Counted from the first letter of the stretch, positions 24,870 through 54,465 are shown. The stretch is DNA of 64,000 bases from an uncultured Verrucomicrobiae bacterium (GCA_963702845.1 OY969763.1:608001-672000), one strand, 5' to 3'. Numbers and translations: made by a program. The notes: generated by a model from the sequence alone, not told the origin.

Positions 24870-27575
24870 ATGAAAATTAAAGTTCTGACCGGTCGTTTGG
24901 TGCTGAATATTCTAACTTTGATGATGAGCGTGCCGATAATAGTTGCGGCAAGCGGATGTCCAACGATCATGGTTAGCCCGGCCACTCTTCCCATTGTGAA
25001 CCTGGGTGAAGTCGTTCCTCCCTGGAGACCAACCGGATCGATGACCACCCCCCGGATTTACCATACCGCGACAATGCTGGCAGATGGCAAAGTGTTTGTC
25101 ACCGGTGGTTACGCACAGGTTCAGCCCATTCCTGTGGTTGATCGGTACCTTTCCAGCGCGGAAATCTATGATCCGGCGACCCACACATGGACGCCCACCG
25201 CTCCAATGTCGGTTAAACGTGCTCACCACACTGCGACGTTGCTGTTGAACGAAAAGGTGCTTGTCGCGGGAGGTTTCAACTTAGACGCAGATAACGAACA
25301 CGACCAATATCTACCCAGTGCAGAACTGTATGATCCAGCGACGGGGATTTGGACGCCTATTGACCCTTTACCTGAAGGCTGTTCCTACGCCGCGGCAACA
25401 TTGCTGCTCGATGGCAGAGTGATGGTGGCAGGTGGTGAGGTGTTCAATAATGGCTATTTCCCGATTTCCGACATCCAGATTTACGATCCATCTTCAGGCA
25501 AGTGGACACGTTGGAGCTCTTTGACCATTCCTCAACAGGACATTGGTGCCGTCCTGATGCCGAATGGAAAAGTGCTGTTTGCCGGCGGTCGATGGAGCCC
25601 CGCTTTTGCGAACTTATACGATCCTGTGGCCATGGGGCCCATGAAAGTCGCAAGTCCAGGGGCTTTGTTTAAAATTCTGACTTTGTTGCCAAACGGGAAA
25701 GTGCTCGGAACTGGTGGTGGCTCGGAAGTTTATGACCCTGCCGCTGACACGTGGACCGAAACGGGGCCGATCAACGGCGGGGGGGATGGTCAGGCAACTC
25801 TGCTGCCCAGTGGACGGGTTTTGGTTTCCGGTAGTGCGGCGTTCCAGCAAAGGAACATGGCTGAGCTGTACGATCCAGCAACTGATACATGGAAGCCAAC
25901 AGGATCATTAAGCACCGGTCGCAGTTTTCACAAGCAGGTGCTGCTCAAAGACGGAACGGTTCTGGCCTGCGGCGGCAACAGCATGGCTGCGACAGAAATC
26001 TACCAACCGGCAGACATCAGCGCGACGGGCGGAGTCGAACCTTATACTTTCGCAATCACTGCTGGATCTGCGCCAGTCGGTGTGACGCTTCACAGTGATG
26101 GCATATGGTCTGGAGTCCCTTTCTTAATGGGGACCAACACCTTCAAAGTTACTGCGACTGACGCCAATGGTTGCACCGGCAGCACGAGCTACACTGTCGT
26201 CGTGGGTCCAAGCAGAGCGTCGGCGAAACCGGGTGCGATCGGCATTTCGATTGTGGCGCCGGGTGATCAAAAAGTTTTTACCTCACCTGCCGTGACAGTT
26301 TCAGGTGTGGCGCACTCTGTGGATCATGGGGTAATCGGAGACCCTGTGCTGGTTTTATACTCACTCAATGGCGGCGAGCAACAAATCGCCACCACCGCAT
26401 TGGGACAGAACTTCAGGACGTGGAGCGCGCCAGTCACGTTGCAGCCCGGCTGGAACACCTTCTTTGCCCAGTCATTCGATAATTCCGGAAACGGATCGAA
26501 AATCGCGAGTCGAATGTACTTCTACGGCAATCCGAAGAACGCCGCCGGCACATACAACGGTTTGTTTTACGAAACAAATGGAATAGGCGGATCGTTGATC
26601 AAGGAACAAAGCGCTGGCGCGGTGTTCAATCTGGCCGTGCAGTTCAACGGCACATATTCCGGGCTCATGTACCTGGCCGGAAAAAAATATGGGTTACACG
26701 GGAATTTCGATTCGCTCGGTAACAGCAGTATTAACATTGCGCGCGGCCCGCTCGCGAATGTTTCGCTTAATATGCAGTTGGACTGGACCGGCACCAGTAA
26801 GCAAATCACCGGGAACGTGTTGTGCGCCGGCGAAGGATGGTCCGCGCCGTTCCAAGCTGACCTCGCGGTTTATAGCGCAACGCATCCACACGCAGCGGTT
26901 CGTTACACCATGGCGATTCCACCAGCCGCCGATGCACCAGCGAATTCGCCCGGTGGCTACGGCTACGGTTTAATCAGCATCAATTCGGTTGGCAAAGTAA
27001 CATTGTCCGGAGCACTGGCGGATTCCAGTGCGATCACAGAGACGGTGCCGGTTTCGAAGGACGGTCACTGGCCTTTGTACGTGGATTTGTACAACCATCA
27101 CGGATTACTGGAAGGTTGGGTTGATTTTGCGAATGGCGCGCCGACGGGGCAGGTCACGTGGATCAAACCAAGTCTTCCGACCGGCGTGAATCTTACAACT
27201 TATCTCAATGGTTTTGTAAACAACGTTGAGGTGTTCGGCTCATCCTACTCACCGGTGCTGCCTGCAATCACCGCCGCAGGCAACACTCTCGAAATCACCG
27301 ATGGGTCGGGATTGAATTTGCCTCTGACATTCGATGCGCAGGTCACAGCGAATAACCAATTGCAAAAGCTGTCGAACACGCCGGCAAACGCGCTTAAAGG
27401 GTCCGTGACCACTGCAACGGGTTTGTTCACTGTGAAGTTCCAGCCCACCGGCAGCGCTGCATTAAAAAGCGCCGTCGGGGTTGTATTGCAAAGTAGCAAC
27501 GCCGCGTATGGAGCGTTCGTCGGAATCAAGGACAGCACCGGCACGACAACCACCGGCGCGATTTACTTGCACTAA
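24870..27575 (+). CDS. Secreted Kelch-repeat / putative-Ig protein with shared C-terminal beta-rich domain
   Basis: Kelch repeats (R..HTAT.L.DGKV.V.GG...AE.YDP); He_PIG-like ATGGVEPYTF...TATDANGC; Ig-like domain; C-terminal domain from AAGTYNGLFY. Confidence 0.85.
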   Translation: MKIKVLTGRLVLNILTLMMSVPIIVAASGCPTIMVSPATLPIVNLGEVVPPWRPTGSMTTPRIYHTATMLADGKVFVTGGYAQVQPIPVVDRYLSSAEIYDPATHTWTPTAPMSVKRAHHTATLLLNEKVLVAGGFNLDADNEHDQYLPSAELYDPATGIWTPIDPLPEGCSYAAATLLLDGRVMVAGGEVFNNGYFPISDIQIYDPSSGKWTRWSSLTIPQQDIGAVLMPNGKVLFAGGRWSPAFANLYDPVAMGPMKVASPGALFKILTLLPNGKVLGTGGGSEVYDPAADTWTETGPINGGGDGQATLLPSGRVLVSGSAAFQQRNMAELYDPATDTWKPTGSLSTGRSFHKQVLLKDGTVLACGGNSMAATEIYQPADISATGGVEPYTFAITAGSAPVGVTLHSDGIWSGVPFLMGTNTFKVTATDANGCTGSTSYTVVVGPSRASAKPGAIGISIVAPGDQKVFTSPAVTVSGVAHSVDHGVIGDPVLVLYSLNGGEQQIATTALGQNFRTWSAPVTLQPGWNTFFAQSFDNSGNGSKIASRMYFYGNPKNAAGTYNGLFYETNGIGGSLIKEQSAGAVFNLAVQFNGTYSGLMYLAGKKYGLHGNFDSLGNSSINIARGPLANVSLNMQLDWTGTSKQITGNVLCAGEGWSAPFQADLAVYSATHPHAAVRYTMAIPPAADAPANSPGGYGYGLISINSVGKVTLSGALADSSAITETVPVSKDGHWPLYVDLYNHHGLLEGWVDFANGAPTGQVTWIKPSLPTGVNLTTYLNGFVNNVEVFGSSYSPVLPAITAAGNTLEITDGSGLNLPLTFDAQVTANNQLQKLSNTPANALKGSVTTATGLFTVKFQPTGSAALKSAVGVVLQSSNAAYGAFVGIKDSTGTTTTGAIYLH

Positions 27576-27594
27576 CGGCGGTCGCCTTCGGTTG

Positions 27595-30380
<2,786 letters not shown>

Positions 30381-30388
<8 letters not shown>

Positions 30389-31672
30389 TGGAATATGCCA
30401 TGGTTGTTTGGTCCGGGAGATTCGCCGGGGATTTGCGTCCAAAGACGTCGCGAATGTGGTTCTCCAATTTTCCCACGATCACGTCCCACCCATTTCGCTC
30501 GGCCATCTCCAGTCCGCCCTCGACATTAAACTTGTGCGAGTCCTGGACTGCATCATGGCAAAGCTCAATAAACTCGTCATGCGCGTTCGCGACTTTGACG
30601 ACTTTGCTGAAATTCGTGACGACATCCGGAACAGCCGTCGACACAATCGGCCGCCCTGTCGCCATATATTCCAACGCTTTGGTTGGATTGATAAATTCGG
30701 TCGCTTCGTTGATCGCGAAGGGCATCAGGCATGCGTTGAATGCCTTTGTGTAGTTGGGCAATTGCGCGTATTCGCGACGGCCAAGCCAGTAAAGATTGCC
30801 GCGCATGGGTAAGCAGTTCGGATCGACTTTCACCACCGGCCCAATCATCACGATGCTCCAGTGCGGGTTGGCATCAGCCAGCTTCGCGATCAGTTCGTAA
30901 TCGAGACGTTCATCGATGACGCCGAAATAGCCGAGAACCGGACGATGCACGAAATCCAGGTCGTTCGGCACTTGCGTATCGATCGAGGCGCGCTTTGCCG
31001 AAATGAGCAACATCAACACCGCACCCGTAAAAATGTGCATTTGAATTCTGCTGCGATTTCGACTGCCAAATCTTGTGTCCCCCGGTGAACACGACGTCCG
31101 CAGCTTCCAACAATCTGCGTTCGCGAATCTTCAACTCGGGCGGAGCGAACTTGAACTGCGACAACTCATCCATGCAGTCGTAAACGATCGCTTTCGCATC
31201 CACTTTGTCGATAAAGCAAGGCGCGGCCATCGGGTCGTAGAACCAATGCACGGCATTACTGAAACAGCCGTTCAACTCACCCTGATTGACCTCGTTGAAG
31301 AAACGCAGACGTTGGCGATCAACCCATACGCCATCATGAAAGCGCGATGCGGGGAAAAACGTCTGCATGATCTGCACATTCGGATAGTTGATGTCGGTGC
31401 GAACTTCAGCGCGAGGGATAAACTCTCCCTCGACGACCGTCGGTCCTTCCACAAACAACACCCGATGATTCTTCGACAATCGCGAAAGGAATTGCTGTGG
31501 CCTTTGCCACACCCCGCTCCAACGCAAATGACAATGCACGACGATTGGAAAATCCGTCCGTTCGAGAAGGCTTGAACTGCTTAATCCCTGTGTGCTTGTC
31601 GACGTCGCCGGTGTCTCGGTTTATACGTCGTTGCTGCCGGACGGCGGTCCGCGTCGTGTTTAATTTCTCCCA
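30381..31672 (-). CDS. Glycosyltransferase (GT-B, glf-associated), frameshifted
   Basis: HLRWSGVWQRPQQFLSR, VYDCMDELSQF, DVVFTGG, GYFGVIDERLD, MPFAINEATEFINPTKALEY; start approximate. Confidence 0.82.
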
Positions 31673-32912
31673 CTACTTCATTACCTCTAGCCATAAGATT
31701 TTTGATATTGTTGAGTCAGCGCGGTTGCGATGGCGGGTCAGTTCGCCGCTGCCCTCGCGTCGCAACCGGTAGATGCCGACATTGTGAATTCTTCCAATCT
31801 GGTGAAGCATCGCGCCGTCCCAGTCGATATGATCGACGAGCGGCCACCAGGTATATCCGATCATGGGAATGCCTTCCGAACGCAGCCGTTGCACATCGCA
31901 CACGGTTTGGTCCAGCCATTGCAGGCGCTCGCATTCATCGCCGTAAAAGCTCGTTTCAGTGAGCATGAGCGGAATGTGATAGCGTTCCCAATAATCTCGG
32001 ACTGTTTTGTATAGCCCCGACAGCTTGGTCGGGATGCGTTGACGAAAATTCTTTTCGGAGCAGGGGTAGAGTTCGGTTTCCGAATGCGAGTAGTAATCCA
32101 AACCAAGCACATCAATGTGAGCCGGGTTTTGTAAAAACCAGCGCAGGTCAAATTGCGATAAACCGTGCTTTTGCAACCAACCCCACAGCTCGTGTTCCTG
32201 GTCGATCTTGCCCGTCACTAAATCAAGGACGACATGGCGGCGATGCAGGCGCAGTTTTAAGTCTTCTTGCAGTTGCTGCATCAACTCGGGCCCAGCCATC
32301 TCGGCGGCTTTTGCTTCAATTGTCGGGTGCTCAAGCGCATCGCAGAGAACAATTTCGGTTTGTGGCGAGAACCGGCGCAACATGCGAATGGAGCGGCTCA
32401 GGCCTTGGGCGACTCGTGATAGGACATGTACGTAAGATTCTCGTCCCCGACCATGTGGCGGCCAAAGTCCAATATCGGCCGAGAATAAGCAGGTGATTAG
32501 CGGCTCGTTGACCGGGCAGACAGAATGGATAGTATTGCGATACTGAGTTCGCGAAAGCTTCCGTGTAGCTCTCCAATGCGTGTGGAAACTCCACGTCGCC
32601 AAAAGCTTCCGGCAGCCATGTGGGTGTTCCAAAATGAACTAAATCGAGAATGAGATTGAATCCAAGCTCCTTGGCGTAACCAAGGCGATCATCGCTCCAC
32701 GACCAGTCGAACTGGTTGCGAGAGGGCTCAACGAGGTGCCAGGGCAGGGAATACCGCATCCATTTGCAGCCCAACTCATGAGCGGCCCTCTTGAAATCGT
32801 CTTTCCAGAATTTGTCGTGCTGAGTCCACTGAAACTGGTCTATTCCAAGATGAGGGATGCAAGAACTCTCTATACCGACTGTCCATCGGAATTCCTTATG
32901 CTCTCTTCCCAT
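31673..32912 (-). CDS. GH1-like glycoside hydrolase, frameshifted near 32550
   Basis: RYSLPWH, DLVHFGTP, VNEP (acid/base), LTETS (nucleophile), GYTWWPLVD. Confidence 0.78.
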
Positions 32913-33149
32913 CCTTGGTTAACCTATCAATGGCCTGTGTCTCCTCAATGGGGGGAGTGCCGGATATTTTTGTAATGGAAGCAAGGTCGAGGTCGGGAGC
33001 GCGAAACGACTGGCCGACGTTCCTTAACGCAGCTTAAAACCTGACGCTCGTCAACCAACGGTCAGGCTTTTCCCTATTGCAAATGGCCCCCCGTTCAGGT
33101 TGATTGAACGCCGTACCTATTGTGTGTCAAACACCAGGAATTCAAAATT

Positions 33150-33497
33150 ATGAAAATGCTTAAAACATTGATCGCCACTGTCTCCGCCATTGCCGTCCTC
33201 GGCATGGTCACCACTAGCTTTGCCGCCGAAAAGGCCACCAAAGAAAAGACCATCTCGGGTACCGCCAAGTGCGCCAAATGCTCCTTGAAGGAATCCGATA
33301 AGTGCCAAACCGTCATTGAAAAGGCCGGCAAAAACGGCAAGACCACCAAGATCTACTTGGAAGACAATGACGTGGCCAAGAACTTCCATGAACAAATCTG
33401 CAAAGAAGCCGAAGGCAAGAAGGTCAAAGCCACCGGCACGACCGTGAAGACGGACGGCAAGATGGTCATGACCGCCAGCAAGATCGAAGCGGAATAG
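33150..33497 (+). CDS. Small secreted Cys/Lys-rich protein (DUF6370-like)
   Basis: Signal peptide; G.AKCAKC.L....CQ...H..IC....V.ATG. Confidence 0.7.
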   Translation: MKMLKTLIATVSAIAVLGMVTTSFAAEKATKEKTISGTAKCAKCSLKESDKCQTVIEKAGKNGKTTKIYLEDNDVAKNFHEQICKEAEGKKVKATGTTVKTDGKMVMTASKIEAE

Positions 33498-33522
33498 CCG
33501 TTTCTGCAGAAGATTTATCGCG

Positions 33523-33553
33523 AGAGCCGACCTTAATGGTCGGCTCTTTTTTT
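33523..33553 (+). terminator. Intrinsic terminator
   Basis: AGAGCCGACC-TTAAT-GGTCGGCTCT plus T-run. Confidence 0.85.
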
Positions 33554-33557
33554 GTAA

Positions 33558-34658
33558 TTAGTCCAAGGACTTGGGCTCGAGCCTGATGAAGCTGATGAGA
33601 TGGTATTTCTCCCGCTCGAACAGAACCCCCGCGCTTTTGTCTTTTAACAGTATAATACTGGAGTAAGCAGCCGGACCTTCGTAGAGCATGTGCTCGGGCC
33701 CAAACGATTCGCATTCGTCGTAACTGACTCGCGCGACGAGGTTGCTTCGACCCGGACCGCGCGGGCCGGTCCACAGGATTCGGTTTTTATTGTCGCCAGC
33801 GGATTCCAACGTCCAACGTTTGATAGCGCAGCAGACGGGCGACACCTCAAGGCCGGGGCGGCGCTTCGACCATGTTTTTCCACCGTCACTGCTCGTGCTA
33901 AACCAACGATGCGAGCCTTTCCCTCCTTGCCGCGTGTCCATCAGAACGCGGCCGTCGGCGAGTTCGACGAGCTGGCTTTCATCGCCGCCACTTTCATCTC
34001 CCGGCACAAAACCACCTCGTTGCCATGTCTTCCCGTGGTCTTCACTGAAGATGGCGAAGTTCTGCCACGGCAGTACCTTCCACGCGGATGCAATCAACCG
34101 GCCCTTGCGATCCTGGATGACTCCGGCGGGACCTACGACGGTGCTTTTCCAGTTCGTATCACTGAGATTGCGACTGACGCTCGTCAGGTCGATACGATCC
34201 GACCACGTCTCGCCGTTGTCATCGCTCCAACGGGCGGCGAGTTGCGTGTCATCAGTTCCAGGGCGGGAAGTCTTCACTGCGCTCCGGCCCGGTTTGCCAC
34301 GTAGATACAACAGCCAGACGCGTTTGGTGTCGTGATCAAAGATTGGTGCGGGATTGCCGGCTGACCATAACTCGCCGGGGGCTTCAATGACTTTAAGAGT
34401 CGACCACGACGCTCCGTTGTTCGTGCTGCGCTTCATGACCAGATCGACGGTTTGTTTCGGAAAGCCAGGATCCGCCATGTTGTTCTTACGGCCTTCAGCG
34501 AAGGCGAGGAGCGAACCATCCGCGGCCGTTTCAATCGCAGGAATGCGGTAACCAAAATAGCCGTCCGTTCCTGAAACAAAAAGATCAACGGGTTTAGGCG
34601 CGGCGTCAATTGAGGCGCATGCGAGGATTGCCAGGAACGCGGTTATCAATTTGTGCAT
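33558..34658 (-). CDS. Sialidase-family (GH33/BNR) protein
   Basis: YRIP motif; Asp-boxes STNNGASW, SDDNGETW, SEDHGKTW, SSDGGKTW; AYSS. Confidence 0.85.
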   Translation of the reverse strand: MHKLITAFLAILACASIDAAPKPVDLFVSGTDGYFGYRIPAIETAADGSLLAFAEGRKNNMADPGFPKQTVDLVMKRSTNNGASWSTLKVIEAPGELWSAGNPAPIFDHDTKRVWLLYLRGKPGRSAVKTSRPGTDDTQLAARWSDDNGETWSDRIDLTSVSRNLSDTNWKSTVVGPAGVIQDRKGRLIASAWKVLPWQNFAIFSEDHGKTWQRGGFVPGDESGGDESQLVELADGRVLMDTRQGGKGSHRWFSTSSDGGKTWSKRRPGLEVSPVCCAIKRWTLESAGDNKNRILWTGPRGPGRSNLVARVSYDECESFGPEHMLYEGPAAYSSIILLKDKSAGVLFEREKYHLISFIRLEPKSLD

Positions 34659-34686
34659 CGCACTGGTTCTGCCGGTTGCGTCGGTT

Positions 34687-34714
34687 TTGACAAGGTATTT
34701 TTTCCTGACAAAGT
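34687..34714 (+). promoter_or_regulatory. Sigma70 promoter, leaderless
   Basis: TTGACA-16-CAAAGT, 6 nt before ATG 34721. Confidence 0.5.
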
Positions 34715-34720
34715 GTGTGA

Positions 34721-35740
34721 ATGAAGTTGCAGCGTCTTCTTAACGGTCTCGTCTTATTCGCGTTTGTTGCCAAAACGACCTTTGCTTTTTCGGAAGATAA
34801 AGCTGCGAAGTACCAGCCGGGCAAAGGTCATTACGAGGTTGCGACCGTACGACTCGAGTGGTACGACGAGAAGCGTAACCGCGACGTTCCCGTTAAAATC
34901 TACTATCCGAAAAATGCTCCAAGACCTGTGCCTCTGATTATTTTTTCTCACGGCTTAGGTGGTTCGCGCGATGGCTACAGCTATTTGGGCAACGAATGGG
35001 CCAGTCAGGGCTATGTTTCTGCGCACGTCCAACACCTTGGAAGCGACACGGCCGTTTTGGAAACCGCGATGACCGGTGGTTTGCAGGAAGCGATGAAACC
35101 GTACGCTGCCAGCAATCGTGTCATCGACGTGTTTTACGCGATAAACGAACTCGAACGAATGAACTCTCAGCCCGGGCCGCTCCACGGCAAAATCGATATC
35201 AATCGCATCGGCGTCGCCGGACATTCATACGGAGCCTGGACCACGCTGGTAGTCGGTGGCGAAGTGATCATAAAAGACGGCCAGCGCGTAAATGTCCAAT
35301 CGCGCAACCACGATTCCCGAATCAAGGCGCTCATTCCGATGAGTGCGCCCGTGCCGGAAAAAACCAGCTTGGACGAAGTGTTTTCGGAAATCAATTTGCC
35401 GTGCTTTCACATGACCGGCACGCTCGACGACAGCCCTATTGCCGACACAAAAGCCGCCGACCGCCGCGTCCCTTTTGATCACATGACCGGTAAAGTGGCC
35501 GACGAATTTCTGCTCACGTTCAAAGGCGGTGATCACATGGTCTTCTCCGGCAGATTGTCACAACGCAGCCCCCGCGCTGAAAGCGATCACATTTTCCAGA
35601 AGTACATCAAAGAAGGCTCAACCGCCTTCTGGGACGCCTACTTGAAAGGTGACCACGCCGCGAAAATCTGGCTGTCAGGCGGCGCTTTCAAAAAAGACCT
35701 CGATGGCGAAGGCACTTTCGAAATGAAATTCGCCAAGTAG
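34721..35740 (+). CDS. Secreted alpha/beta hydrolase
   Basis: FSHGLGGSR, GHSYG nucleophile, TGTLD, GGDHMVF. Confidence 0.85.
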   Translation: MKLQRLLNGLVLFAFVAKTTFAFSEDKAAKYQPGKGHYEVATVRLEWYDEKRNRDVPVKIYYPKNAPRPVPLIIFSHGLGGSRDGYSYLGNEWASQGYVSAHVQHLGSDTAVLETAMTGGLQEAMKPYAASNRVIDVFYAINELERMNSQPGPLHGKIDINRIGVAGHSYGAWTTLVVGGEVIIKDGQRVNVQSRNHDSRIKALIPMSAPVPEKTSLDEVFSEINLPCFHMTGTLDDSPIADTKAADRRVPFDHMTGKVADEFLLTFKGGDHMVFSGRLSQRSPRAESDHIFQKYIKEGSTAFWDAYLKGDHAAKIWLSGGAFKKDLDGEGTFEMKFAK

Positions 35741-35744
35741 ATCG

Positions 35745-36252
35745 TCATTGGATGTTTGACCGAGCGCGCAACGCAGCGACTGTCTCAAGTTCGTTGACGT
35801 ATTTGCGGCAGAGCAGGAGCGGAATCGCGCCGATTACGCCAAACGAGCAATCGATCACGCGCCAGAACAACGGAATGCCTCGCACCGCGCCAAACACAAA
35901 TGCGTAAGGAATTACCAGCGCACACGCGATTAATCCGAACGTGAACAGCCATTTGTTGGGGACCGGCTCGCGTAATGCCCCCACGAACACCAGCGCGATC
36001 ATAAAATGTCCGAACGCCAACCAATCGGTTCCGTAGAACAGAAACGGGTGCGTTGAACCGAACGTCGTCGAGTGCTTGTTCGACCTTCAGAAGCCATTGC
36101 GCCATAAGGCAATTCTGATTTCCAAAGTGCTCCGATAACAGACGCACCTCAGACTGTAATGGAATGGCCGTCACACCACTGACGAAAAGGCCAACGATGA
36201 ACAGCCAGACCAACATGCGGATGCGTTGATGGAGGATTTCGTCTCGCGACAT
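35745..36252 (-). CDS. Hypothetical membrane protein, frameshifted near 36045
   Basis: FIVGLFVSGVTAIPL continues in another frame as FYGTDWLAFGHFMIA...RGIP..WR.IDCSFG. Confidence 0.7.
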
Positions 36253-36255
36253 AAC

Positions 36256-37014: not shown

Positions 37015-37032
37015 AATTTGTTTTTGTTTGGA

Positions 37033-37748: not shown

Positions 37749-37778
37749 GGCGCAATGGCATTGTGCGCGCACTGCCGG

Positions 37779-38636: not shown

Positions 38637-38694
38637 TTCAGTTGGTAGGGCGCGTCGCTCCGCGCGCATCAGTTTTTAATGATTCGAACCCAAA

Positions 38695-38711
38695 ACTTTG
38701 TATTGCAAAGT
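38695..38711. promoter_or_regulatory. Palindromic operator, copy 1
   Basis: ACTTTG-TATTG-CAAAGT upstream of ispH. Confidence 0.75.
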
Positions 38712-38750
38712 AAGACTGCAGGTTTGTTAAACTGTTCAATTTTATTTCTC

Positions 38751-39685: not shown

Positions 39686-39692
39686 GCGAGTA

Positions 39693-39721
39693 ACTTTGTA
39701 TTACAAAGTAAATAGTGTCAA
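39693..39721 (-). promoter_or_regulatory. Leaderless sigma70 promoter overlapped by palindromic operator, copy 2
   Basis: Minus strand TTGACA-17-CAAAGT-7-ATG; ACTTTG-TATTA-CAAAGT at 39693-39709. Confidence 0.8.
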
Positions 39722-39832
39722 GCTTAATAGACCGCCTCCATCGCCGATTCCAATCGGCACGCGTCAGGTTTACAAGCCGCCGTCCGGACGCCTTCCTTGC
39801 CATGCCCGTCGACAATGAATACCCTGTCCCGA

Positions 39833-40939: not shown

Positions 40940-40940
40940 C

Positions 40941-42665: not shown

Positions 42666-43975
42666 ATAAACTCGTTGATCAGGTTCTCGAGAAATTCCTG
42701 GCGGCCGCTGCTATTCGGCGCAGCTTCGCCTTTCTTGAGCATGTATTTCTCGAGAGTTTCGAAACTGGCGCGACCGAGTTCGATGTCCTGGCCGATGTCC
42801 TTGTCCCACGACGCATAGCGCGCTTTGACGAATTCGGCGAGACGTCCGTCCTTGCGCATTGCGGCGGCGATTTTTAGGCCACGCGCAAAAGCATCCATGC
42901 CGCCGACGTGCGCGTGAAATAGATCGTCGGTCTCGAAACTTTCGCGGCGCACTTTGGCGTCGAAATTCACGCCACCAGTCTTCAACCCGCCGGCGTTCAA
43001 GATCGTTAGCATGCACTGTGTCGTCAGGTAAATATCAGTCGGAAATTGATCGGTGTCCCAGCCAAGAAGTGGGTCGCCGGTGTTGGCGTCGATTGAGCCG
43101 AGAGCGTCGGCCGCGACCGCGACTTCCAATTCGTGCTGCATCGAGTGGCCGGCAAGCGTGGCGTGGTTGGTTTCGAGGTTCAGCTTGAGATGATCTTTCA
43201 AGCCATACTCGCGCAAAAAATTCAGGCACGCGGCGGCATCGGAATCGTATTGGTGCTTGGTTGGTTCTTTGGGTTTTGGCTCGATGTAAAACTGGCCTTT
43301 GAATCCGATCTTCTTTTTGTGCTCGACCGCCATGTGCAAAAATTTGGCGAGGTGATCGAGTTCGCGTTTCATGTCCGTGTTCAGCAAAGTGGAATAACCT
43401 TCGCGCCCACCCCAAAACACATAGCCTTCGCCACCGAGTTCATTGGTGACCTCGAGCGCTTTCTTGACCTGCGCTGCGCCGTAGGCAAAAACGTCGGCGT
43501 TGCAGCTCGTGGCCGCGCCGTGCGCATAACGCGGATGCACGAACAAACAAGCTGTTCCCCAAAGTAAACGAATTCCGGTGCGCTGTTGTTCCTCCTTCAG
43601 GACTTTCGCAACTGCGTCGAGATTCTTATTCGTGTCAGTGAGCGACGCGCCTTCTGGTGCAACGTCGCGATCATGGAACGCATAAAATGGCGCGCCGAGC
43701 TTCTCGATAAATTCAAAGGCCACGCGCGCGCGATTCTCCGCGTTCGCAACCGAATCCGAGTTATCGTCCCACGGACGGAACATGGTCGGGCCGCCGAACA
43801 TATCCGCGCCACGTCCACGGAAGGTGTGCCAATAAACGACGGAAAAACGGAGGTGATCCCGCATCGTTTTGCCTTCGATCACCTCGTCGGCGTTGTAATG
43901 TTTGAAGGCTAACGGATTCTTGGACTTCGGACCTTCGTATTGGATTTTTGAAATTTTTGGGAATGCCTGAGACAT
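42662..43975 (-). CDS. xylA: Xylose isomerase (class II)
   Basis: [46 protein letters not shown]. Confidence 0.97.
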
Positions 43976-44205
43976 AAAAATTGAAATACGCAGCGAGTTT
44001 GGGGGCGATGATTCATTTCCGGCAAGAGAAAACAGCGGTGATATTGGACCTGCTTGTGCTTACAAATCCAACAATAGGGCAGTGGCTTTTGCAGTCGTGA
44101 GAAAATGAGGGGGCGCCTGGCGGCTGTTACTTCGGTGTTTTTGTAAGTGTCTTATTAGCAGCGTGCAATAAACGTGGCCTGCTGCGGGATTTGCAGATCT
44201 GTTGT

Positions 44206-44221
44206 TGGCACGGTTCCGGCT
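44206..44221 (+). promoter_or_regulatory. Possible sigma54 (-24/-12) promoter
   Basis: TGGCAC-GGTTC-CGGCT with GG-N10-GC spacing; -12 element imperfect. Confidence 0.45.
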
Positions 44222-44232
44222 TTATCTCAAGT

Positions 44233-44421
44233 ATGATCGCACGTGTAATACGTCTCAAAACCAAACGATCCAGCGCCCGCCGAGTTTCATTGGCGCGTCC
44301 CAATAGCTTTCGTCATACGGCAGAGCCGCAAGACCACCCCGCCTTTGGATTGCCTGATTCTTATCAATCATGGCTGAGCGACGGCGCTTCCAAAGAAATC
44401 GGTGAATTTTATCGCGCCTAA
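44233..44421 (+). CDS. Small hypothetical protein (62 aa)
   Basis: ATG at the predicted start site of the sigma54-like promoter; followed by a long hairpin. Confidence 0.45.
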   Translation: MIARVIRLKTKRSSARRVSLARPNSFRHTAEPQDHPAFGLPDSYQSWLSDGASKEIGEFYRA

Positions 44422-44481
44422 GAACGCGAAACATCCGTATCCGTTAGCTAAAGGAGTGTGGGGTACGGGATTTCGCGTTCT
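44421..44481. terminator. Long hairpin between convergent genes
   Basis: AGAACGCGAAA..TCCGTATCC pairs with GGGTACGGG.TTTCGCGTTCT. Confidence 0.55.
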
Positions 44482-44493
44482 GGGGCGCAACGT

Positions 44494-45846
44494 TTATAGC
44501 GCCGTTGGATAAGTTTCGGGAAGTTCACCTTCGTCCCATTGCGACGTTCGTTCCAAAGGTTCTACCGCCTGGGTTTCGTCAAAATGAATCACCGCGTCGA
44601 ATTGTTCGGCGAGGTTTGATGAAAAATAATGGCTCCAACGTTCCGTGTCGGGCCGGTAAACGACCCCAATCGCACGTTCCAATAATTCCGGCGCCAATGC
44701 GCGATACAGAGTTCTGTTATCACGAATAGTGAGCAGGAAATCCGCAATACCGACCTCATGAAACAATTCTTCATAACTGTCCCGGAGCGGTTCTCGCACT
44801 TGTTTGCGTTCGGCTGGGTCGCCCCAATCTGACGCGGCGGTGACAGTCCCGGTTGCGGTCGTAAATCCCACGAGAACAGTTTTATCTCCGTGCCGCTCAC
44901 GCATCAACTGGCCAATGTTTAACTCACCCCGATTGGTCATTTGGGTAGCCCGTGCATCGCCTAAATGCGAATTGTGCGCCCAGACAACGGCTTTCGGAAC
45001 TTCACCCTGGCCACGGAAGTGATCCATTAAACGATCGAGCGTGTTGACCATGTGCGTGTCGCGCAGGTTCCAAGTATTCGGACGGCCGCGATACATGGCG
45101 CGGTAATATTGTTCGGCGTTCTTTGCAACGAGCGCATTCTGTTCGGCAAAGAACAATTCATCGGCAGCGGCACGACCATCGCGGGATAGGAAGTCCATTG
45201 CGCGCTTTTGCAACTCGATGAGCTGTTCGACCACCACGTCTTCGCACGAGAGTGATTTGTGCTGACTCGCCGTTAGACCGTAGGAGTGCGCGTCGTCGCC
45301 GAAATGTTCAAAACAGGAGTATCGCATGCGCGCTTCCATGGCGGCTTCGGGATCCATTTTTTGCAGGTAACGAATCACTGCGTCGATCGAGGCGTGCAGG
45401 CTGTATAGGTCGAGACCGTAGAAACCAACTTTGCTCCAAGCGGGGTGATTGCTGGTGGTGGCATTGTGAGCGCGCAACCAGCCGATGAAACCAACCATAT
45501 CCGCATTACGCCACATCCATGTTGGAAAACGTTTGAAATCGCTGAGCGCTTCATTGGCAGTATCGTCCTGGTCGCCACCGCGAATGTATCGATTCACACG
45601 CAGTGCGTCTGGCCAATCCGCTTCAAGTACGATCACATTGAACCCTTTTTCCGTGATGAGCCGCTTGGTGATTTCCGCACGCGCGTTGTAAAATTCGTGT
45701 GTCCCGTGGGTCGATTCTCCGAGCAGAACAAATTGAGCATTGCCGATTATTTCGATGAGCGGATCGTAATCGGTGGATTCGCCCGTGATAGGGGATGCGA
45801 ATTCGCGAACGGTATCGGCAGTCTGATGCAAACTGAGCATCGCCAT
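44494..45846 (-). CDS. Erythromycin esterase family protein
   Basis: LGESTHGTHEFY, EADWPD, FPTWMWRN, GLDLYSL, WNLRD.HM, WAHNSHLGDARAT, RAIGVVY. Confidence 0.88.
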   Translation of the reverse strand: MAMLSLHQTADTVREFASPITGESTDYDPLIEIIGNAQFVLLGESTHGTHEFYNARAEITKRLITEKGFNVIVLEADWPDALRVNRYIRGGDQDDTANEALSDFKRFPTWMWRNADMVGFIGWLRAHNATTSNHPAWSKVGFYGLDLYSLHASIDAVIRYLQKMDPEAAMEARMRYSCFEHFGDDAHSYGLTASQHKSLSCEDVVVEQLIELQKRAMDFLSRDGRAAADELFFAEQNALVAKNAEQYYRAMYRGRPNTWNLRDTHMVNTLDRLMDHFRGQGEVPKAVVWAHNSHLGDARATQMTNRGELNIGQLMRERHGDKTVLVGFTTATGTVTAASDWGDPAERKQVREPLRDSYEELFHEVGIADFLLTIRDNRTLYRALAPELLERAIGVVYRPDTERWSHYFSSNLAEQFDAVIHFDETQAVEPLERTSQWDEGELPETYPTAL

Positions 45847-45911
45847 AAAACCTCCTGCTCAAACCTAAAACCATTTACGCGGTACGCAACGGGCAGGAAG
45901 GCGCAGCCCCT

Positions 45912-46598
45912 CTATGGCGTGACCGATTTCTCGTCGATTACTTTCTTGCTGATCAGCTTCTGAAGTTTCGGGCGGATGATGAATGCGCAGTAACCCTGGC
46001 TGCCGTGTGTATTGTAGTAGTTCTGGTGATAATCTTCGGCCGCGTAGAATTTCTTCAGCGGCACGATCTCCGTGACGATCGGGTCTTTATAATTCTTCTG
46101 CGCTTCTGCCTTCACTTTTTCAGCAACCTTCTTTTGCTCGTCGTCCGAATATAGAATGACAGAACGATATTGGGTGCCGACATCGTGTCCCTGGCGATTA
46201 AGCGTCGTCGGGTCATGCTCTTCAAAGAATACTTCCAGCAACTTGTCGTAAGAAATCTGCGCCGGGTCGAACTTGATTTGAATGACTTCCGCGTGACCGG
46301 TGTTGCCGTGGCAAACTTGTTCGTAGGTCGGGTTTTCTTTAGTGCCGCCGGCGTAACCGCTGGTGACGGATTTCACGCCGGGAATCCGTTGAAACACGGC
46401 TTCACCGCACCAGAAGCAGCCACCTCCGAACGTGGCGGTCTGCAGATTCTTTTCGGGCTCGGTGGATTTTTCAGGAGCGGCATTCATACAAATTGCAGTA
46501 GTTAAAAGAGCGCCAAGTGCCAGGATCAGCATTTCAGCTAGAGACCATCGGCTGAAACCGATCGATTCGAACTTCCGATATGTATTGGTGCACATCAT
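45912..46598 (-). CDS. msrA: Peptide methionine sulfoxide reductase A with signal-like N-terminus
   Basis: [43 protein letters not shown]; start uncertain. Confidence 0.93.
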
Positions 46599-46633
46599 CT
46601 GTTTGACTTGGGTCTGGACGAAACGTTCAACGG

Positions 46634-46846
46634 TTATTTAGGTTTGTCCATATCTTCTTCGTTCAGGTTTTCGAATTCTTTGAAATGATCGGGCCGCAAC
46701 GGTTCGGAAATTTTATTTTCTTCGCCGAGCCATTTGCCGAGGTCGACCAACTTGCAGCGTTTGGAGCAGAACGGGCCCCATGGCGTCGAAAGCCAGTCGC
46801 CTGCTTTTTTGCAAGTCGGGCATTTTATCTCGCGCGTGTTGGCCAT
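46634..46846 (-). CDS. yacG: DNA gyrase inhibitor YacG
   Basis: CPTC...[15 protein letters not shown]. Confidence 0.9.
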
Positions 46847-46998
46847 GTCTAAAAACCTAATGCAAACCTCTCTCCCAGCAAAGAGACATTGCGCACGCTA
46901 GTTGGTGCGCCGGGGGGTTGGTCTCGACTTGGCTGAACAGTCTCGCGGCATGAATAAAAGCTTTAGCAAAAGCGCGGATTCCACTAAAATCCGTCACA

Positions 46999-49638
46999 AT
47001 GCGAGGTCTTTTTAATTCTGTTTTGGCGTTCGCTTTCGCGTCGTTACTCACCTCTGCGTCTGCGCTGACTATTACAACGCAACCGAAAGCGACCACTGTC
47101 AATGCCGGTTCCACCGCTACTTTCAGAGTGGTCACCACCAATGGGACCGTCACGGCTTATCGATGGTTCTTTGGGACAACTGCTTTGCAGGACGGCACGA
47201 ATAACTCCGGCGCCGTCATTTCCGGCTCTCAGACTGCAACGCTCACCATTGAAAATGTCACCACCAATCTAAATGCGGGCATGTTCAAGGTCGCCGTTTC
47301 CAACGCCGCGAGTCCCGTGGTAAGTATCGCCGCAAGGCTATCAGTGATTCGGGGCACGTTGGTGAACTTCGACGTGCCGGGTGTGGGAACTATGGTCGTG
47401 GAACTCTTCGACCACGACAAACCGGTTACAGTCCAAAACTTTTTGCGCTATTTGCAGAGCGGGTATTCAGGATTTACAAACTTCTACGCGAACGCGTTCT
47501 TTAGTCGGCTTGAGAAAGATTTCGTCCTGCAAGGCGGCGATTTTGCTCCGTATCCGATGGCGTTGGGCAATGCGTTTACGAACGTTTACTCCATCGCGGA
47601 CGTGGCTTTGTCCACGCTTAATGCTGTTGGGGGTGGATTGTTGTGGTATGTGAATAATGAATCGAGCGTTGGTCCGCACATACGCAACACATTCGGAACG
47701 CTTGCCATGGCAACGCCCGATGGATTTCCAAATCGCGCCCGTTCCACGTGGTTCTTCAATTTGGCCGACAATTCAGGTAATCCGCAAAATCTCGATACCA
47801 CTAACGGCGGCTATGCCGTGTTCGGACGTGTCGTGCAAGGCCTCGACGTGCTCACGACAATGAATCAATTGCCGTCTAACCAGATTATTTCGCACGACGT
47901 GACGACGCAGATTACGTCGACGATTTACGGCACAAACACCTTTCTAACTTTGCCGGTCAAAACCACCGATGCGAACAACGTCCACATTTCGGATCTGTAT
48001 CTCATCAACAGTTCGCTCTTGTCGCGACCGCTCTTCGATGTAATCAAACCCACTATTAAAATTACTTACCCTCCCGCGAATGCGATGCTGACGAATGGCG
48101 TTTTTACGATGCGCGGAACCGCAAGTGATAACGTGGGTGTGGCCGGGGTGTATTGTCAGAACCTGTTTTACCATGCTGTGGGACCTGATTTCTTGGACAA
48201 CGACGAGAGCCTTATCGGCCACATCTTTTTGACGGGCACAACAAATTGGTCCGCTGATGTTAATCTGCATCCGGGACCCTGGAAAATGATCATGACGGTT
48301 TACGACGGCCACGGCAATTGGTCGCAGGTTACCGAAAATTTTGTCGTCCTCAGCCCATTGACTGTAACCACAAGCGGCACTGGAACGGTTACGCCGAATT
48401 TGAATGGCAAATGGCTCGCACCCGAAACGAGATATTCAATGACAGCTACGCCGGGCCGCGGACAGTTGTTCGCTTACTGGAGTGGCGTGCGCAATGGCGA
48501 AACGTGGATATTTCCATATAATGACGACACATGGACTTTCCTTGGCAACGACAACTTTAAAAGCGGCCCGCAGCTTGGCCCCAAAGTGACGACGCCTGCG
48601 TTGAACTTCACGATGTATACCAATCTGACTGTCACGGCGAATTTTGTGTCCAACTACTTCCCGGTCGTGCAAGGAACCTATTACGGACTCGTCGCTCCGA
48701 CGGACCACAACTTCATCACTGTTTCCAATGCCGGCCTGTGTAAAATTTCGAGTGCCTCTGTCGGTTCGTTCAGCGGCACGCTGTCCATGTTGGGCAAGAT
48801 GTTTTCCTTTTCAGGGAAATGGGATTATGCCGGAAACGCGAACGGTGTTGTCATTGCGCGACCCGGAATCAGCAACTTAACGGCAAACCTGAGCATCGAC
48901 TTGAGCAATAATCTTGGGCAGGTGACCGGCACGATCAATGGTCCTGGCTGGACGTCTGACGTGAATGCATACCGCAGCGTGACTAAACTGACCACAAATA
49001 CTGTCCCTGCGACACGCAATTATGTCATGACCATTCCGAGCCAATCCGCGAACAGCGATCTCGGCGACAGTTTCGCGACCGTGAGCGTGTCATCCATCGG
49101 CACGTTGACGATTAATGGATTGATGTCCGACAACACGCCTTGGACCGAATCGGTCGGGGTAGGGCAGAGCGGCAACTTCCCGCTCTTCGCGTCACTATAT
49201 AGCGGACGCGGACTGGTGATCGGTCTGCAGGAATTCGCGGACAACAGCGTCGCTCGCTGGATCCGCCCGGCGATTTCAAATGCGTATTATACGAACGGTT
49301 TCTCGACCGGCGCGTTCTTCGACGGGCTGCATCAATACGTTCGCCCAGCGGCAAATAGCACCTACACACTTCGCTTTGGCGGCAATACGTTGACTGAAGT
49401 CGATTACTCGCTTCGTGTCAGTACTGCGGGACAATTCGTAGTGACTGGCGGTTCGGGCAAGGTCCCAACACTCGTTCTGACCGCAACCACTGGCGCAATC
49501 TCCGGCACTTGGACAGACAGCAATAACGGAAAATGGACGCTCAAAGGCGTTTTCCAGGATGCGTCGGCTGGTGGAACCGGATTTATTCTTGGACCGCACG
49601 GCCAAACCGGTTACCTGCACATCAACCCGACGCCATAA
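46999..49638 (+). CDS. Secreted Ig + cyclophilin PPIase + Ig + B-repeat protein with shared C-terminal domain
   Basis: ITTQP...TATF Ig; P.TVQNFL.Y, FSRL..DFVLQGG, GTLAMA, WFFNL.DN, YAVFGRV; GTASDNVGV; C-terminal domain from VQGTYYGL. Confidence 0.85.
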   Translation: MRGLFNSVLAFAFASLLTSASALTITTQPKATTVNAGSTATFRVVTTNGTVTAYRWFFGTTALQDGTNNSGAVISGSQTATLTIENVTTNLNAGMFKVAVSNAASPVVSIAARLSVIRGTLVNFDVPGVGTMVVELFDHDKPVTVQNFLRYLQSGYSGFTNFYANAFFSRLEKDFVLQGGDFAPYPMALGNAFTNVYSIADVALSTLNAVGGGLLWYVNNESSVGPHIRNTFGTLAMATPDGFPNRARSTWFFNLADNSGNPQNLDTTNGGYAVFGRVVQGLDVLTTMNQLPSNQIISHDVTTQITSTIYGTNTFLTLPVKTTDANNVHISDLYLINSSLLSRPLFDVIKPTIKITYPPANAMLTNGVFTMRGTASDNVGVAGVYCQNLFYHAVGPDFLDNDESLIGHIFLTGTTNWSADVNLHPGPWKMIMTVYDGHGNWSQVTENFVVLSPLTVTTSGTGTVTPNLNGKWLAPETRYSMTATPGRGQLFAYWSGVRNGETWIFPYNDDTWTFLGNDNFKSGPQLGPKVTTPALNFTMYTNLTVTANFVSNYFPVVQGTYYGLVAPTDHNFITVSNAGLCKISSASVGSFSGTLSMLGKMFSFSGKWDYAGNANGVVIARPGISNLTANLSIDLSNNLGQVTGTINGPGWTSDVNAYRSVTKLTTNTVPATRNYVMTIPSQSANSDLGDSFATVSVSSIGTLTINGLMSDNTPWTESVGVGQSGNFPLFASLYSGRGLVIGLQEFADNSVARWIRPAISNAYYTNGFSTGAFFDGLHQYVRPAANSTYTLRFGGNTLTEVDYSLRVSTAGQFVVTGGSGKVPTLVLTATTGAISGTWTDSNNGKWTLKGVFQDASAGGTGFILGPHGQTGYLHINPTP

Positions 49639-49639
49639 T

Positions 49640-50269
49640 GTGACCATTTTCATCGCGACGCGTAATGCGCATAAAGTCCATGAGATCCGTCAAATTCTTG
49701 GGGCGGATATTCGGTTTTTGACGTTGCGGGATTTGCCGAATGCGCCCGAAGTGGTGGAAGATGCCGATACGTTCGCGGGCAATGCAGTTAAGAAAGCAAC
49801 CTCGTTGGCTAAATGGCTCGCCGATCAACCGGAGATCAACAAGGGCGAATTGTATGTTCTCGCCGACGATTCCGGTCTCGAAGTGGACGCATTAAACGGC
49901 GCACCTGGAGTCCATTCGGCACGCTTTGCCGCGGATGACAAAACCAAAGGCAATTCTGCCGACAGTGCAAACAACGCAAAATTGCTGCAGTTGTTGCAAA
50001 AAGTCCCAATGGACAAGCGGACGGCGCGGTTTCGCTGCGTGTTGGCGTTTACACCGGTGGCCAACGCGCAGAGTGCCAGCACGTTCGACGGCGCTTGCGA
50101 AGGCCGAATCGAGTTGGCACCACGTGGAACGTCTGGGTTCGGCTACGACCCATTGTTCATCCCCAACGGCTACTCCCAAACTTTTGGAGAGTTGGGTGAG
50201 ACGGAAAAAAACAAGCTGAGCCATCGCGCCAATGCCCTCGGAAAACTGCGGTCGTCCCTAGGTAAGTGA
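49640..50269 (+). CDS. rdgB: dITP/XTP pyrophosphatase (Ham1)
   Basis: ATRNAHK, ADDSGLEVDALNGAPGVHSAR, GFGYDPLF, KN..SHR; GTG start. Confidence 0.93.
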   Translation: MTIFIATRNAHKVHEIRQILGADIRFLTLRDLPNAPEVVEDADTFAGNAVKKATSLAKWLADQPEINKGELYVLADDSGLEVDALNGAPGVHSARFAADDKTKGNSADSANNAKLLQLLQKVPMDKRTARFRCVLAFTPVANAQSASTFDGACEGRIELAPRGTSGFGYDPLFIPNGYSQTFGELGETEKNKLSHRANALGKLRSSLGK

Positions 50270-50281
50270 TCCCGTTTCAAA

Positions 50282-50310
50282 TTGACAACTGCACAGGAGT
50301 TCCTTTTAAT
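50282..50310 (+). promoter_or_regulatory. Sigma70 promoter
   Basis: TTGACA-17-TTTAAT upstream of ATG 50365. Confidence 0.55.
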
Positions 50311-50364
50311 TACGACGGCCAATTAGACACACGCTTGTCCGAGCTGAATGCAGTACCCCAAACA

Positions 50365-52620
50365 ATGTTTACGCTGCTAACCCATCGGTTGCGCTTCTTG
50401 TTCGCAACGGCGCTCGGGCTGTTTTGTTCGTTCGGTTTTGCTGATATCGCATGCGCGGACAATCCACCGTCCTCTATCACGTACACGGAAATTTATCGTG
50501 ATACGATCCGCAACGACCCCGACTTCGGTCCGTTCGTCATACCGATCGTCTCGTCCTCGTTATCGGTCACACTATATACGAATGTGCCGAGTGCAACGTT
50601 TAGCGCGAAGACGCCATGGGACATCACTTTTGGACTGCTCGAGATATCCGGCTCATTTAGCAATGATCCAAATTACACGGTTGGCAAAACCTCCGCCGCT
50701 TTTCCATTTGTTGATCCAAATACGTCTCAAGTCGCCGGGGCTATTTTCATGTCGTGGCAGTCCGACCATTTCATGCTCACGATCAGGACGAGTTCAGATT
50801 TTGTCGATGCTTTGGATTTCTATACTGGCGCAACGCAGCCGATCAGCGATGCCTCTGATTTAACAATCACGGTTGGCAAATTGGCTCATACGAGCACCAT
50901 TTTCCTCAGCGGCCACAATACGCATCGAATCGATCCGGTTAGTCAGTTGGATTTGGACACGGGAAATATTCTCGGAAAAGGAGATTTTATCGGTCCGACC
51001 GTCTCCATTCAGTCGCCGGCGCCAAACTTTGCCACATTTAACTCGGCTTTGAATGTAACTGGCCTGGCTACTGATAACATCGGCGTTGGTGCCGTTATGT
51101 GGCGTTGGGCGGTGCCCGGCGAGGATCCTAGCCGCGGTGCGTCGCGGTTCGACGATTGGAGCTCGGTGGACGTGCTGAATATCCCTGAGACCGGACTGGC
51201 CACGCGCGCGACATGGAGCACGGCAGTGGACATGAGCTTCAACGAACCAGGCACGAATCGTTTTTGGGTCACTAGTCAGGATCCCGCCGGGCATTTTTCC
51301 GCGATACAAACCCGACAGTTCTTTTATTCCGTTCCAAGTTACCTGACCTTGCAATCGACTGATGGTGGCCGACCTGTTGGTGGACCGGGAGTGTTCAACA
51401 ACGCGGCACTGATAATCAATCGTCCCTATTCCGTCAACGCAATCGCTAATCGTGATAGCATTTTCCTGAACTGGATCGACGGAGATGGAACGGTGGTATC
51501 GATCACGCCGCAATACAAATTCCTGATGCAAGATTCCCTGACCTTGCAGGCAAACTTCGGGCCCAACCCGTTTCCCGCAGTCGCCGGTGTGTATAACGGA
51601 TTGTTCAATCCTGCCACCGGAGTGAGCGAGCTCGATTCGGGTTTGATTTCCGTGACCGTTAGTTCGCATGGCACTTACTCGGGTCACGTGACGCTTGAGT
51701 CCGGAACGTATTCGTTCACAGGCCAGTTTGGCTTCTACGGAAACGCGGGCGATCCCAACGCGGCGGACACAACATTCCAGATTACAGCCAAGGGATTGAA
51801 GCCAATCTTAGGCTCACTTCATATCGCGGGCGCGGGACCGAATGCCTTGAGTCGCAATCTCACTGGTCAACTTTCCGTCTTTGATGCACGCCTGCAAAAG
51901 CGCGTTGTTTCAGTGATCGACGCCGGGTATTCGGCCGGCGCAATCGGTGATGTTGCGGCAGGGTTGTACAATTTCCAGCTTCCTTCATCCCAGGGCACCA
52001 CTCAGATTGGGCCACTCGGTTACGGATACGGAAGTGTGACGCTAAAATCGAATGCTTTGGCTACCACGATGGTAACGCTCGCTGACCAGACGCCGGTTGC
52101 CACTTGCAGCAGCGCCTTAGTGGAAGGCGGCAGTTTACCGGTGTTTATCTCTGGCTATGGCGGCCTGGGAATTATGATCGGATGGCTCACATTCACGAAC
52201 GAAGCCACCAGCGATTTGCGCGGCGACAATGTGCATTGGATCAAACGTCGTCGCCCGGCTAATGCATTTTATCCTGATGGTTTTCATCGGATTTTTGAAG
52301 TGACTGGTTGCCGCTACGTAGCGCCGAAGGCCGGCACAAACATCCTGGGTTGGACCAGTGGAACGGTGAGTTTCGCTGACTTTGCCTTCTCTGGGACGGA
52401 AGGAATAGCGTTCGATCCGAAGCTCAACCGCTTCAGCTTTCCGGCAAATCAGGACAATTTTCGGATTGGCTTCTCGCCCGCGACGGGCATTTTCACCGGC
52501 ACGTTCGCTTCTAGGCCATCTCTGCCTCTTCGCGGAATTGTGCTGCCGAAATTGAATACGGCCTACGGCTTTTTCCTCGATCAAAACCAGAGCGGTTTTG
52601 TCGTCTTCAGCACGCCTTAG
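50365..52620 (+). CDS. Secreted protein: unknown N-domain + Ig + B-repeat + shared C-terminal domain
   Basis: Signal peptide; PTVSI.SP...GLATDNIGV; FLNW...LTLQANF; C-terminal domain from VAGVYNGLF. Confidence 0.8.
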   Translation: MFTLLTHRLRFLFATALGLFCSFGFADIACADNPPSSITYTEIYRDTIRNDPDFGPFVIPIVSSSLSVTLYTNVPSATFSAKTPWDITFGLLEISGSFSNDPNYTVGKTSAAFPFVDPNTSQVAGAIFMSWQSDHFMLTIRTSSDFVDALDFYTGATQPISDASDLTITVGKLAHTSTIFLSGHNTHRIDPVSQLDLDTGNILGKGDFIGPTVSIQSPAPNFATFNSALNVTGLATDNIGVGAVMWRWAVPGEDPSRGASRFDDWSSVDVLNIPETGLATRATWSTAVDMSFNEPGTNRFWVTSQDPAGHFSAIQTRQFFYSVPSYLTLQSTDGGRPVGGPGVFNNAALIINRPYSVNAIANRDSIFLNWIDGDGTVVSITPQYKFLMQDSLTLQANFGPNPFPAVAGVYNGLFNPATGVSELDSGLISVTVSSHGTYSGHVTLESGTYSFTGQFGFYGNAGDPNAADTTFQITAKGLKPILGSLHIAGAGPNALSRNLTGQLSVFDARLQKRVVSVIDAGYSAGAIGDVAAGLYNFQLPSSQGTTQIGPLGYGYGSVTLKSNALATTMVTLADQTPVATCSSALVEGGSLPVFISGYGGLGIMIGWLTFTNEATSDLRGDNVHWIKRRRPANAFYPDGFHRIFEVTGCRYVAPKAGTNILGWTSGTVSFADFAFSGTEGIAFDPKLNRFSFPANQDNFRIGFSPATGIFTGTFASRPSLPLRGIVLPKLNTAYGFFLDQNQSGFVVFSTP

Positions 52621-54452: not shown

Positions 54453-54465
54453 ACTGGCACGCCGG

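Follow-up and report, generated by a model that had tools for sequence, protein, structure and literature searches.

The C-terminal domain of type IX secretion in Bacteroidota is a sandwich of about 70–80 residues that is cleaved and occurs on many unrelated secreted proteins, and autotransporters have a 12-stranded transmembrane barrel with a C-terminal aromatic residue. For Verrucomicrobia, the accessible part of PMC4960237 describes PEP-CTERM/exosortase as a terminal sorting tag present on many proteins, for which the PEP motif, a membrane helix and a basic cluster are needed; the same part describes a PilQ-like secretin of Akkermansia, Amuc_1098, with an N-terminal extension and Pil-like partners. 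Slam, of the type 11 secretion system (T11SS), is known from Proteobacteria, and the search reported in the accessible part of PMC5449769 covered proteobacterial clades only. Verrucomicrobia are unmentioned in the accessible parts of PMC8406197 and PMC12282271. The Verrucomicrobiota make many giant secreted enzymes and adhesin-like proteins, whose addressing to the surface, or retention there, is not explained in the literature searched.

We analyzed a window of 64,000 nucleotides from an uncultured Verrucomicrobiae bacterium (GCA_963702845.1 OY969763.1:608001-672000) that contains three genes, A, B and C, with a common tail. The tails are homologous, terminal, variable in the number of their barrels and exchanged in relatives for a second tail, RFYR.

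Three genes with a common C-terminal module

Gene A (24870..27575, plus strand) encodes a signal peptide, a Kelch propeller, a He_PIG Ig domain, an Ig-like domain and the triple-barrel tail. Its ORF (24738-27575) opens at a GTG at 24738, and the signal peptide is preceded by an ATG at 24870. The Ig-like domain (26250..26531, plus strand), which contains the motif I..P...G.A and has a weak Glucodextran_B match, lies directly upstream of the module. Barrel 1 (26541..26873, plus strand) has eight strands in the predicted model and is nearest to T11SS cargo barrels in structure matches. Barrel 2 (26886..27254, plus strand), also of eight strands, is the most conserved part, with the motifs G.GYG, LADG, WPLY, GW, WIKP and Y..GF, and the eight-stranded barrel 3 (27270..27572, plus strand) is absent from many relatives.

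Gene B (46999..49638, plus strand) consists of a signal peptide, an Ig I-set domain, a cyclophilin domain (47380..47883, plus strand) whose relatives end in either the RFYR or the barrel tail, an Ig-like domain, an InlB-B-like repeat ending in TANF (48634) and the triple-barrel tail (48667..49635, plus strand; barrels at 48667-48984, 49006-49344 and 49351-49635). Gene C (50365..52620, plus strand), in an ORF (50266-52620) that opens at a GTG at 50266, encodes a signal peptide, an unnamed N-terminal domain, an Ig-like domain, an InlB-B-like repeat ending in QANF (51547) and the tail (51580..52617, plus strand; barrels at approximately 51580-51957, 51952-52323 and 52348-52617). The N-terminal domain of gene C has three relatives, all at barrel-matching places in one genome. 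No RNA records are listed for genes B and C.

The three tail segments are in frame, reach the stop codon and comprise 344, 323 and 346 residues. An earlier note on this DNA had aligned them by eye as one domain, and the homology is borne out by pairwise local alignment scores of 279, 233 and 159 against shuffled means of 42–46 (500 shuffles each, maximum 71–80), corresponding to z values of 29, 29 and 16. BLASTP between the tails gives E values of 2e-22, 4e-17 and 2e-19 at about 25–30% identity, and the motifs picked out in the note fall in conserved columns that are collinear across the tails. The signal peptides that it ascribed to each protein were likewise found as signal-peptide-like starts at 24870, 46999 and 50365, by regular expression and by eye rather than with SignalP. 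It had also placed an Ig-like domain just before the module in all three. The I..P...G.A motif occurs in A, B and C (nt 26250, 48061 and 51007), and the placement holds for A; in B and C, the InlB-B-like repeat intervenes, and this repeat, with its (T/Q)ANF ending, is present in two of the three proteins as described, with InlB-B matches that are divergent. The N-terminal parts differ as claimed: A matches Kelch and He_PIG, B matches Ig and cyclophilin, and the matches of C, to Ig and InlB-B models, are all weak.

Several other genes were seen in the window. Two genes upstream of A (22810-23973, plus strand) lies the gene for a protein with a signal peptide, one BON domain and a long stretch rich in Ser, Gln and Thr. 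A Ham1-family pyrophosphatase gene (49559-50269, plus strand) lies between B and C on the same strand, and a Mur-ligase gene is convergent with gene C. Arabinofuranosidase (27595-29123, minus strand), UDP-galactopyranose mutase (29267-30034, minus strand) and GatB (54281-54955, minus strand) appear as partial or split ORFs; split genes are common in the source genome, a single contig, and may be assembly indels. A DUF3738 domain is fused to an ECF-type sigma factor at 15516-17024 (minus strand).

Predicted fold and range of the family

The module was modeled with AlphaFold2 from 23 sequences (mean pLDDT 89.9, pTM 0.87). The model contains 24 strands in three groups of eight, with strands of 4–11 residues, mostly 6–8, and barrel 3 folded alone is also eight-stranded (pLDDT 86). 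A terminal aromatic residue (F/Y) occurs in 6 of 198 terminal copies, a C-terminal hydrophobic helix in 0 of 204 relatives and a lipobox in 1 of 137. The short strands, the few aromatic termini, the absence of a helix and the single lipobox together predict a soluble module and cargo with no other visible anchor. The predicted architecture is that of three packed soluble eight-stranded barrels and not of a membrane barrel, which favours the soluble side of the choice between membrane barrel and soluble beta domains raised by the earlier note.

The best nine matches in a VIA-align comparison cover residues 1–111, which constitute barrel 1, and all are Slam/T11SS cargo barrels (Z 8.4–9.8, rmsd 3.1–4.7 over 92–105 residues). 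The lead of the T11SS barrels is modest, because Z values of 7.8–8.3, about 1–2 below the best, are reached by de novo barrels, Cap15 and avidins. Foldseek places TbpB first, and the listed matches at E <1e-3 are TbpB, with low whole-model TM-scores. Barrel 2 matches Cap15, OmpA-type and avidin barrels at Z 7–8 (OmpA, OprF and TtoA at 7.6–7.8), barrel 3 has generic matches with Z up to about 6.6, and similar barrels follow GH43 arabinanases (Z 6.0–6.8). Internally, the alignment of barrel 1 with barrel 2 is weak (E 0.005, probability 7%) and barrel 3 does not align, so that a common origin of the three barrels is unsupported.

The family is large. Its profile matches 11,736 cluster representatives at E<=0.001, giving approximately 11,700 clusters at 50% identity, and a family of this size that has no library model is worth cataloguing. 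The earlier opinion that the domain is unnamed and fits none of the autotransporter, type IX or S-layer signatures agrees with the searches: the module of 23 members has no family match near the cut-off in Pfam or NCBIfam, TbpB-type models of these libraries match 0 of 23 members at E<=1, no SLH or S-layer family matches the 23 members, no Por_Secre_tail-type C-terminal domain in Pfam or NCBIfam matches the module, and a search of PDB sequences yields nothing below E 0.16. The Atlas neighbours of the module are unnamed Verrucomicrobiota clusters, with no named cluster above 0.76; no viral structure was matched at E<=0.001, and no plasmid match was found. The module is not described in the literature searched, which lies mostly outside subscription papers.

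Named matches are mostly from Limisphaerales, Verrucomicrobiales and Chthoniobacter. With the source genome counted, the module is present in 42 of 101 genomes of the same order and in 10 of 151 of the phylum, in searches that begin with a loose first pass and miss divergent copies. Two records titled Bifidobacterium (L083, L086) have barrel-tailed genes arranged as in the verrucomicrobial loci L082, L085 and L087 and are likely mis-binned contigs. A scan of genome contigs with a single protein gave 8 loci. In the source genome, which is likely from the Limisphaerales, an iterated HMM identifies 27 ORFs and per-barrel HMMs identify 28, encoding proteins of 384 to 4,367 residues. A signal-peptide start is recognized by a crude rule in 21 of the 28 (against a high background of 321/551) and by eye in three more, and the remaining four look like downstream fragments of split genes. 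One gene stands alone, with a signal peptide and the module only (G000:C1:3363093-3364247). It is convergent with the gene for a 2,039-aa secreted protein and lies near an ExeA-like ATPase gene, labeled by eye.

The C-terminal position of the module is general: 26 of the 28 copies of the source genome end within 15 residues of the last barrel, as do 198 of 204 database relatives, which are the best scorers against the full profile, a choice that favours complete copies. The position is not strictly terminal, nor is the module always single, as 31 of the 204 contain further internal copies or part copies. The number of barrels also varies. Among 20 matches fetched because they were partial, 18 have barrels 1 and 2 (14 of these from one genome) and two have barrel 1 alone, all ending a few residues after the last barrel; the source genome contributes two copies with two barrels and one with a single barrel. 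Genome G246 (L149-L162) holds 40 matches, at least 14 of them two-barrel forms that end exactly after barrel 2. A frameshift was considered for the short forms and rejected for the two two-barrel copies of the source genome, in which the missing barrels are not continued past the stop; its one-barrel copy has a short matching stretch beyond the stop and may be a broken gene. Barrels are thus lost from the C-terminal end of the module, and barrel 1 is the constant part within this order; in distant classes, the barrel 1 model often fails to score. Because the last barrel may be the first, second or third, the very last residues are not a fixed signal.

Exchange with the RFYR tail and the secretin operon

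RFYR is a verrucomicrobial tail of about 75 residues for which no library name was seen. It is unrelated in sequence to the barrel tail, has about 150 copies in the source genome compared with 28 of the barrels, and none of the 154 RFYR ORFs of this genome contains a barrel. One barrel gene of the source genome belongs to an operon in which genes labeled by eye as PilM-, PilO- and PilP-like are joined by a secretin gene and by those of three conserved, unnamed secreted proteins, X, Y and T. The operon is located at G000:C1:3461001-3492130; in many copies a polA-like fragment is found between the secretin and X, and giant proteins with either tail also follow the secretin.

We compared 43 hand-picked operon loci, namely that of the source genome, two found through neighbours, 20 selected so that the length of X varied and 20 from barrel-positive genomes. 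Orthologue T is present in 42 of the 43; its tail is a barrel tail at 9 of these loci and RFYR at 31, and two are assigned to neither (one divergent, one split). A single clade of barrel forms is rejected by the AU test on both the T core tree (p 4e-5) and the X tree (p 4e-6), quick trees with long branches; barrel-tailed T is spread across at least three clades, and the starred branches force three to four tail changes. The neighbouring X carries RFYR in 28 of the 31 operons with RFYR-tailed T and in none of the nine with barrel-tailed T, where it is tailless in seven, has three barrels in one and two barrels in one. When kinship is allowed for, three independent pairs remain, in which the pattern holds in most pairings without reaching significance (p 0.25). 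Tailless X and Y occur in the same operons.

The same exchange is seen outside the operon. The cyclophilin of gene B has matches in 46 of the 101 genomes of the order, and among 30 loci fetched, including its own, 24 end in RFYR, six in barrels (copies cut by the locus ends) and none is tailless. Two adjacent paralogues of the source genome, 74% identical over 950 residues, end one in barrels and the other in RFYR. The module is therefore interchangeable, in orthologues and paralogues, with a second uncatalogued tail. The earlier surmise of one unchanging terminal module, absent from the family libraries, on varied cargo that is likely secreted is supported, and tail swapping in orthologues is now directly seen. 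What the swap shows is that the two tails are equivalent in place, not what they do, the role of RFYR itself being putative. Across the phylum, RFYR is found in 73 of 151 genomes and the barrels in 10; five of the nine other barrel-positive genomes have no match to the RFYR profile, which may miss divergent forms, and the barrels may not depend on RFYR.

The source genome, 89.8% complete, was searched for export machinery. The Slam family PF04575 has no match there, nor has the type IX family PF11751, with no control matched in either case, and the autotransporter family PF03797 is absent with its controls matched. None of 20 outer-membrane barrel candidates matches PF04575, no SlipAM match was obtained in the genome or among these candidates, and the TPR_Slam matches of the genome are generic. 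There are five secretin matches, five GspE/PilB/PilT-like motifs and 42 prepilin motifs; such secretin, ATPase and pilin-like genes are common, and their presence does not show use. The secretin operon contains genes with either tail; the majority of barrel genes are elsewhere. By gene neighbourhood alone, barrel-tailed cargo would likely leave via the secretin. X was considered as a one-to-one partner of the barrels and ruled out, as it is present in 91 of the 101 genomes of the order versus 42 for the barrels.

No transporter gene lies beside the cargo genes in the neighbourhoods compared. A recurrent partner gene, beyond housekeeping genes and the secretin operon, was not found at 20 loci with long flanks, nor at 8 long and 80 short loci, a weak test with flanks of mostly 1.5 kb. 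The 28 neighbourhoods of the source genome were read by eye, in part. At G000:C1:927703-931679, the gene for a giant secreted protein that ends in a further, different C-terminal region is directly followed by one for a 348-aa outer-membrane barrel, and at G000:C1:320164-325508, BBP2 barrel, exosortase-like and TPR genes occur together; about two PEP-CTERM-like tails were seen in the source genome.

Proposed role and relation to described systems

The triple-barrel module is probably a terminal address module equivalent to RFYR. What it would do is less certain, and our tentative reading, at slightly less than even confidence, is that of a tail for non-covalent docking, which would keep Sec cargo at the cell surface after a likely exit through the secretin. 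The cargo would be exported by Sec via an ordinary cleaved signal peptide, and the folded protein would pass a secretin of the type II/type IV pilus class, a passage suggested by genes with either tail sharing the operon behind the PilM/O/P-like and secretin cluster. Barrel 1, which is kept in this order, might together with barrel 2 bind a repeated surface ligand, protein or glycan, with barrel 3 and tandem copies adding avidity or reach. The N-terminal cargo (Kelch propeller, cyclophilin or adhesin-like repeats) would be displayed on a stalk of Ig and InlB-B domains, and tailless X and Y could ride on T. No ligand or partner of the barrels was found in the neighbourhoods compared.

It is also possible, though somewhat unlikely, that the barrels serve as an export signal, in the form of a folded tag that either the secretin machine or some outer-membrane translocon would read, with RFYR as a second signal for the same route. 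The structural matches of barrel 1 and the TbpB matches in Foldseek point this way, as do the strong terminal bias and the occurrence of both tails in the secretin operon, and targeting is assigned to the T11SS cargo barrel in the accessible parts of PMC8406197 and PMC12282271. That the best fold matches of the model are export-signal barrels counts against docking; however, de novo barrels, Cap15 and avidins score within about 1–2 Z of them, and none of the 20 outer-membrane barrel candidates matches the Slam family. Docking is preferred because the last barrel, and with it the last strand, varies, because the module is also found repeated internally and as a stand-alone copy, and because X and Y are retained without tails in the same operons. 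The fold match of barrel 1 would equally suit true T11SS cargo served by a Slam too divergent for detection, which we regard as very improbable: TbpB-type families are unmatched by sequence, SlipAM has no match, Slam was described from Proteobacteria (in the accessible part of PMC5449769), and the cargo here reaches 4,367 residues, is not lipoprotein and has no transporter gene alongside.

Repeats, variable barrel number and the stand-alone copy would also fit barrels that bind a target outside the cell, be it a polysaccharide, a mineral or the surface of a host, or that serve as a rigid spacer or a unit that self-assembles, their terminal position being due to domain shuffling; conserved Trp/Tyr residues in barrel 2 and the similar barrels following GH43 arabinanases agree with this. 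Such a role is nonetheless improbable, as the cargo (Kelch, cyclophilin, S8 peptidase, adhesin-like repeats) have no function in common, and the strict alternation with RFYR, with 0 of 30 cyclophilin loci tailless, better fits a required address. The outer-membrane anchor or autotransporter-like translocator put forward in the earlier note is the reading that fares worst, and we consider it extremely improbable. Barrel 2 does align to OmpA, OprF and TtoA, but the 24 strands, at 4–11 residues, are short for a bilayer and form three small barrels, few copies have aromatic ends, no C-terminal helix occurs and PF03797 is absent. Among natural orthologues, one and the same protein occurs with RFYR, with barrels and with no tail, a matched set in which export and retention are separable.

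The tail resembles known C-terminal sorting and anchoring domains in its working, and no membership in any of them came out of the comparisons; its function is putative. Like the type IX C-terminal domain, it is one folded terminal module on many unrelated cargo, but it forms a triple barrel of 330 residues and does not match that domain. In contrast to PEP-CTERM proteins, neither motif, helix nor basic cluster follows the module (helix 0/204). The Amuc_1098 cluster of Akkermansia, as far as the accessible part of its description goes, and the barrel-gene operon look alike by gene order; here, the secretin is followed by the secreted proteins X, Y and T and giant proteins with either tail. RFYR and the barrels occupy the same position on the same orthologues and paralogues, and in the same operon, and are unrelated in sequence.

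The closest likeness is to Slam/T11SS cargo (hemophilin 6om5, NHBA 5o1r, LbpB 3uaq, fHbp 9mrj, HphA 8gm3, TbpB and HpuA), which share a small soluble C-terminal eight-stranded barrel, a signal peptide and variable N-terminal parts. In the module, by contrast, three barrels follow one another directly, uninterrupted by a handle or pedestal domain, sequence similarity is absent, the cargo are giant and not lipoproteins, the phylum is another, the tail swaps with an unrelated one, and no Slam was detected or adjacent (a search of the source genome in which no control matched). It is possible, though less likely than not, that Verrucomicrobiota have a new mode of surface display, in which two unrelated interchangeable terminal addresses, an RFYR sandwich and one to three small barrels, are served by a secretin, the barrel tail being a T11SS-like fold without Slam. 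Should the barrel function with no Slam, a fold regarded as the hallmark of type 11 secretion would have a second use.
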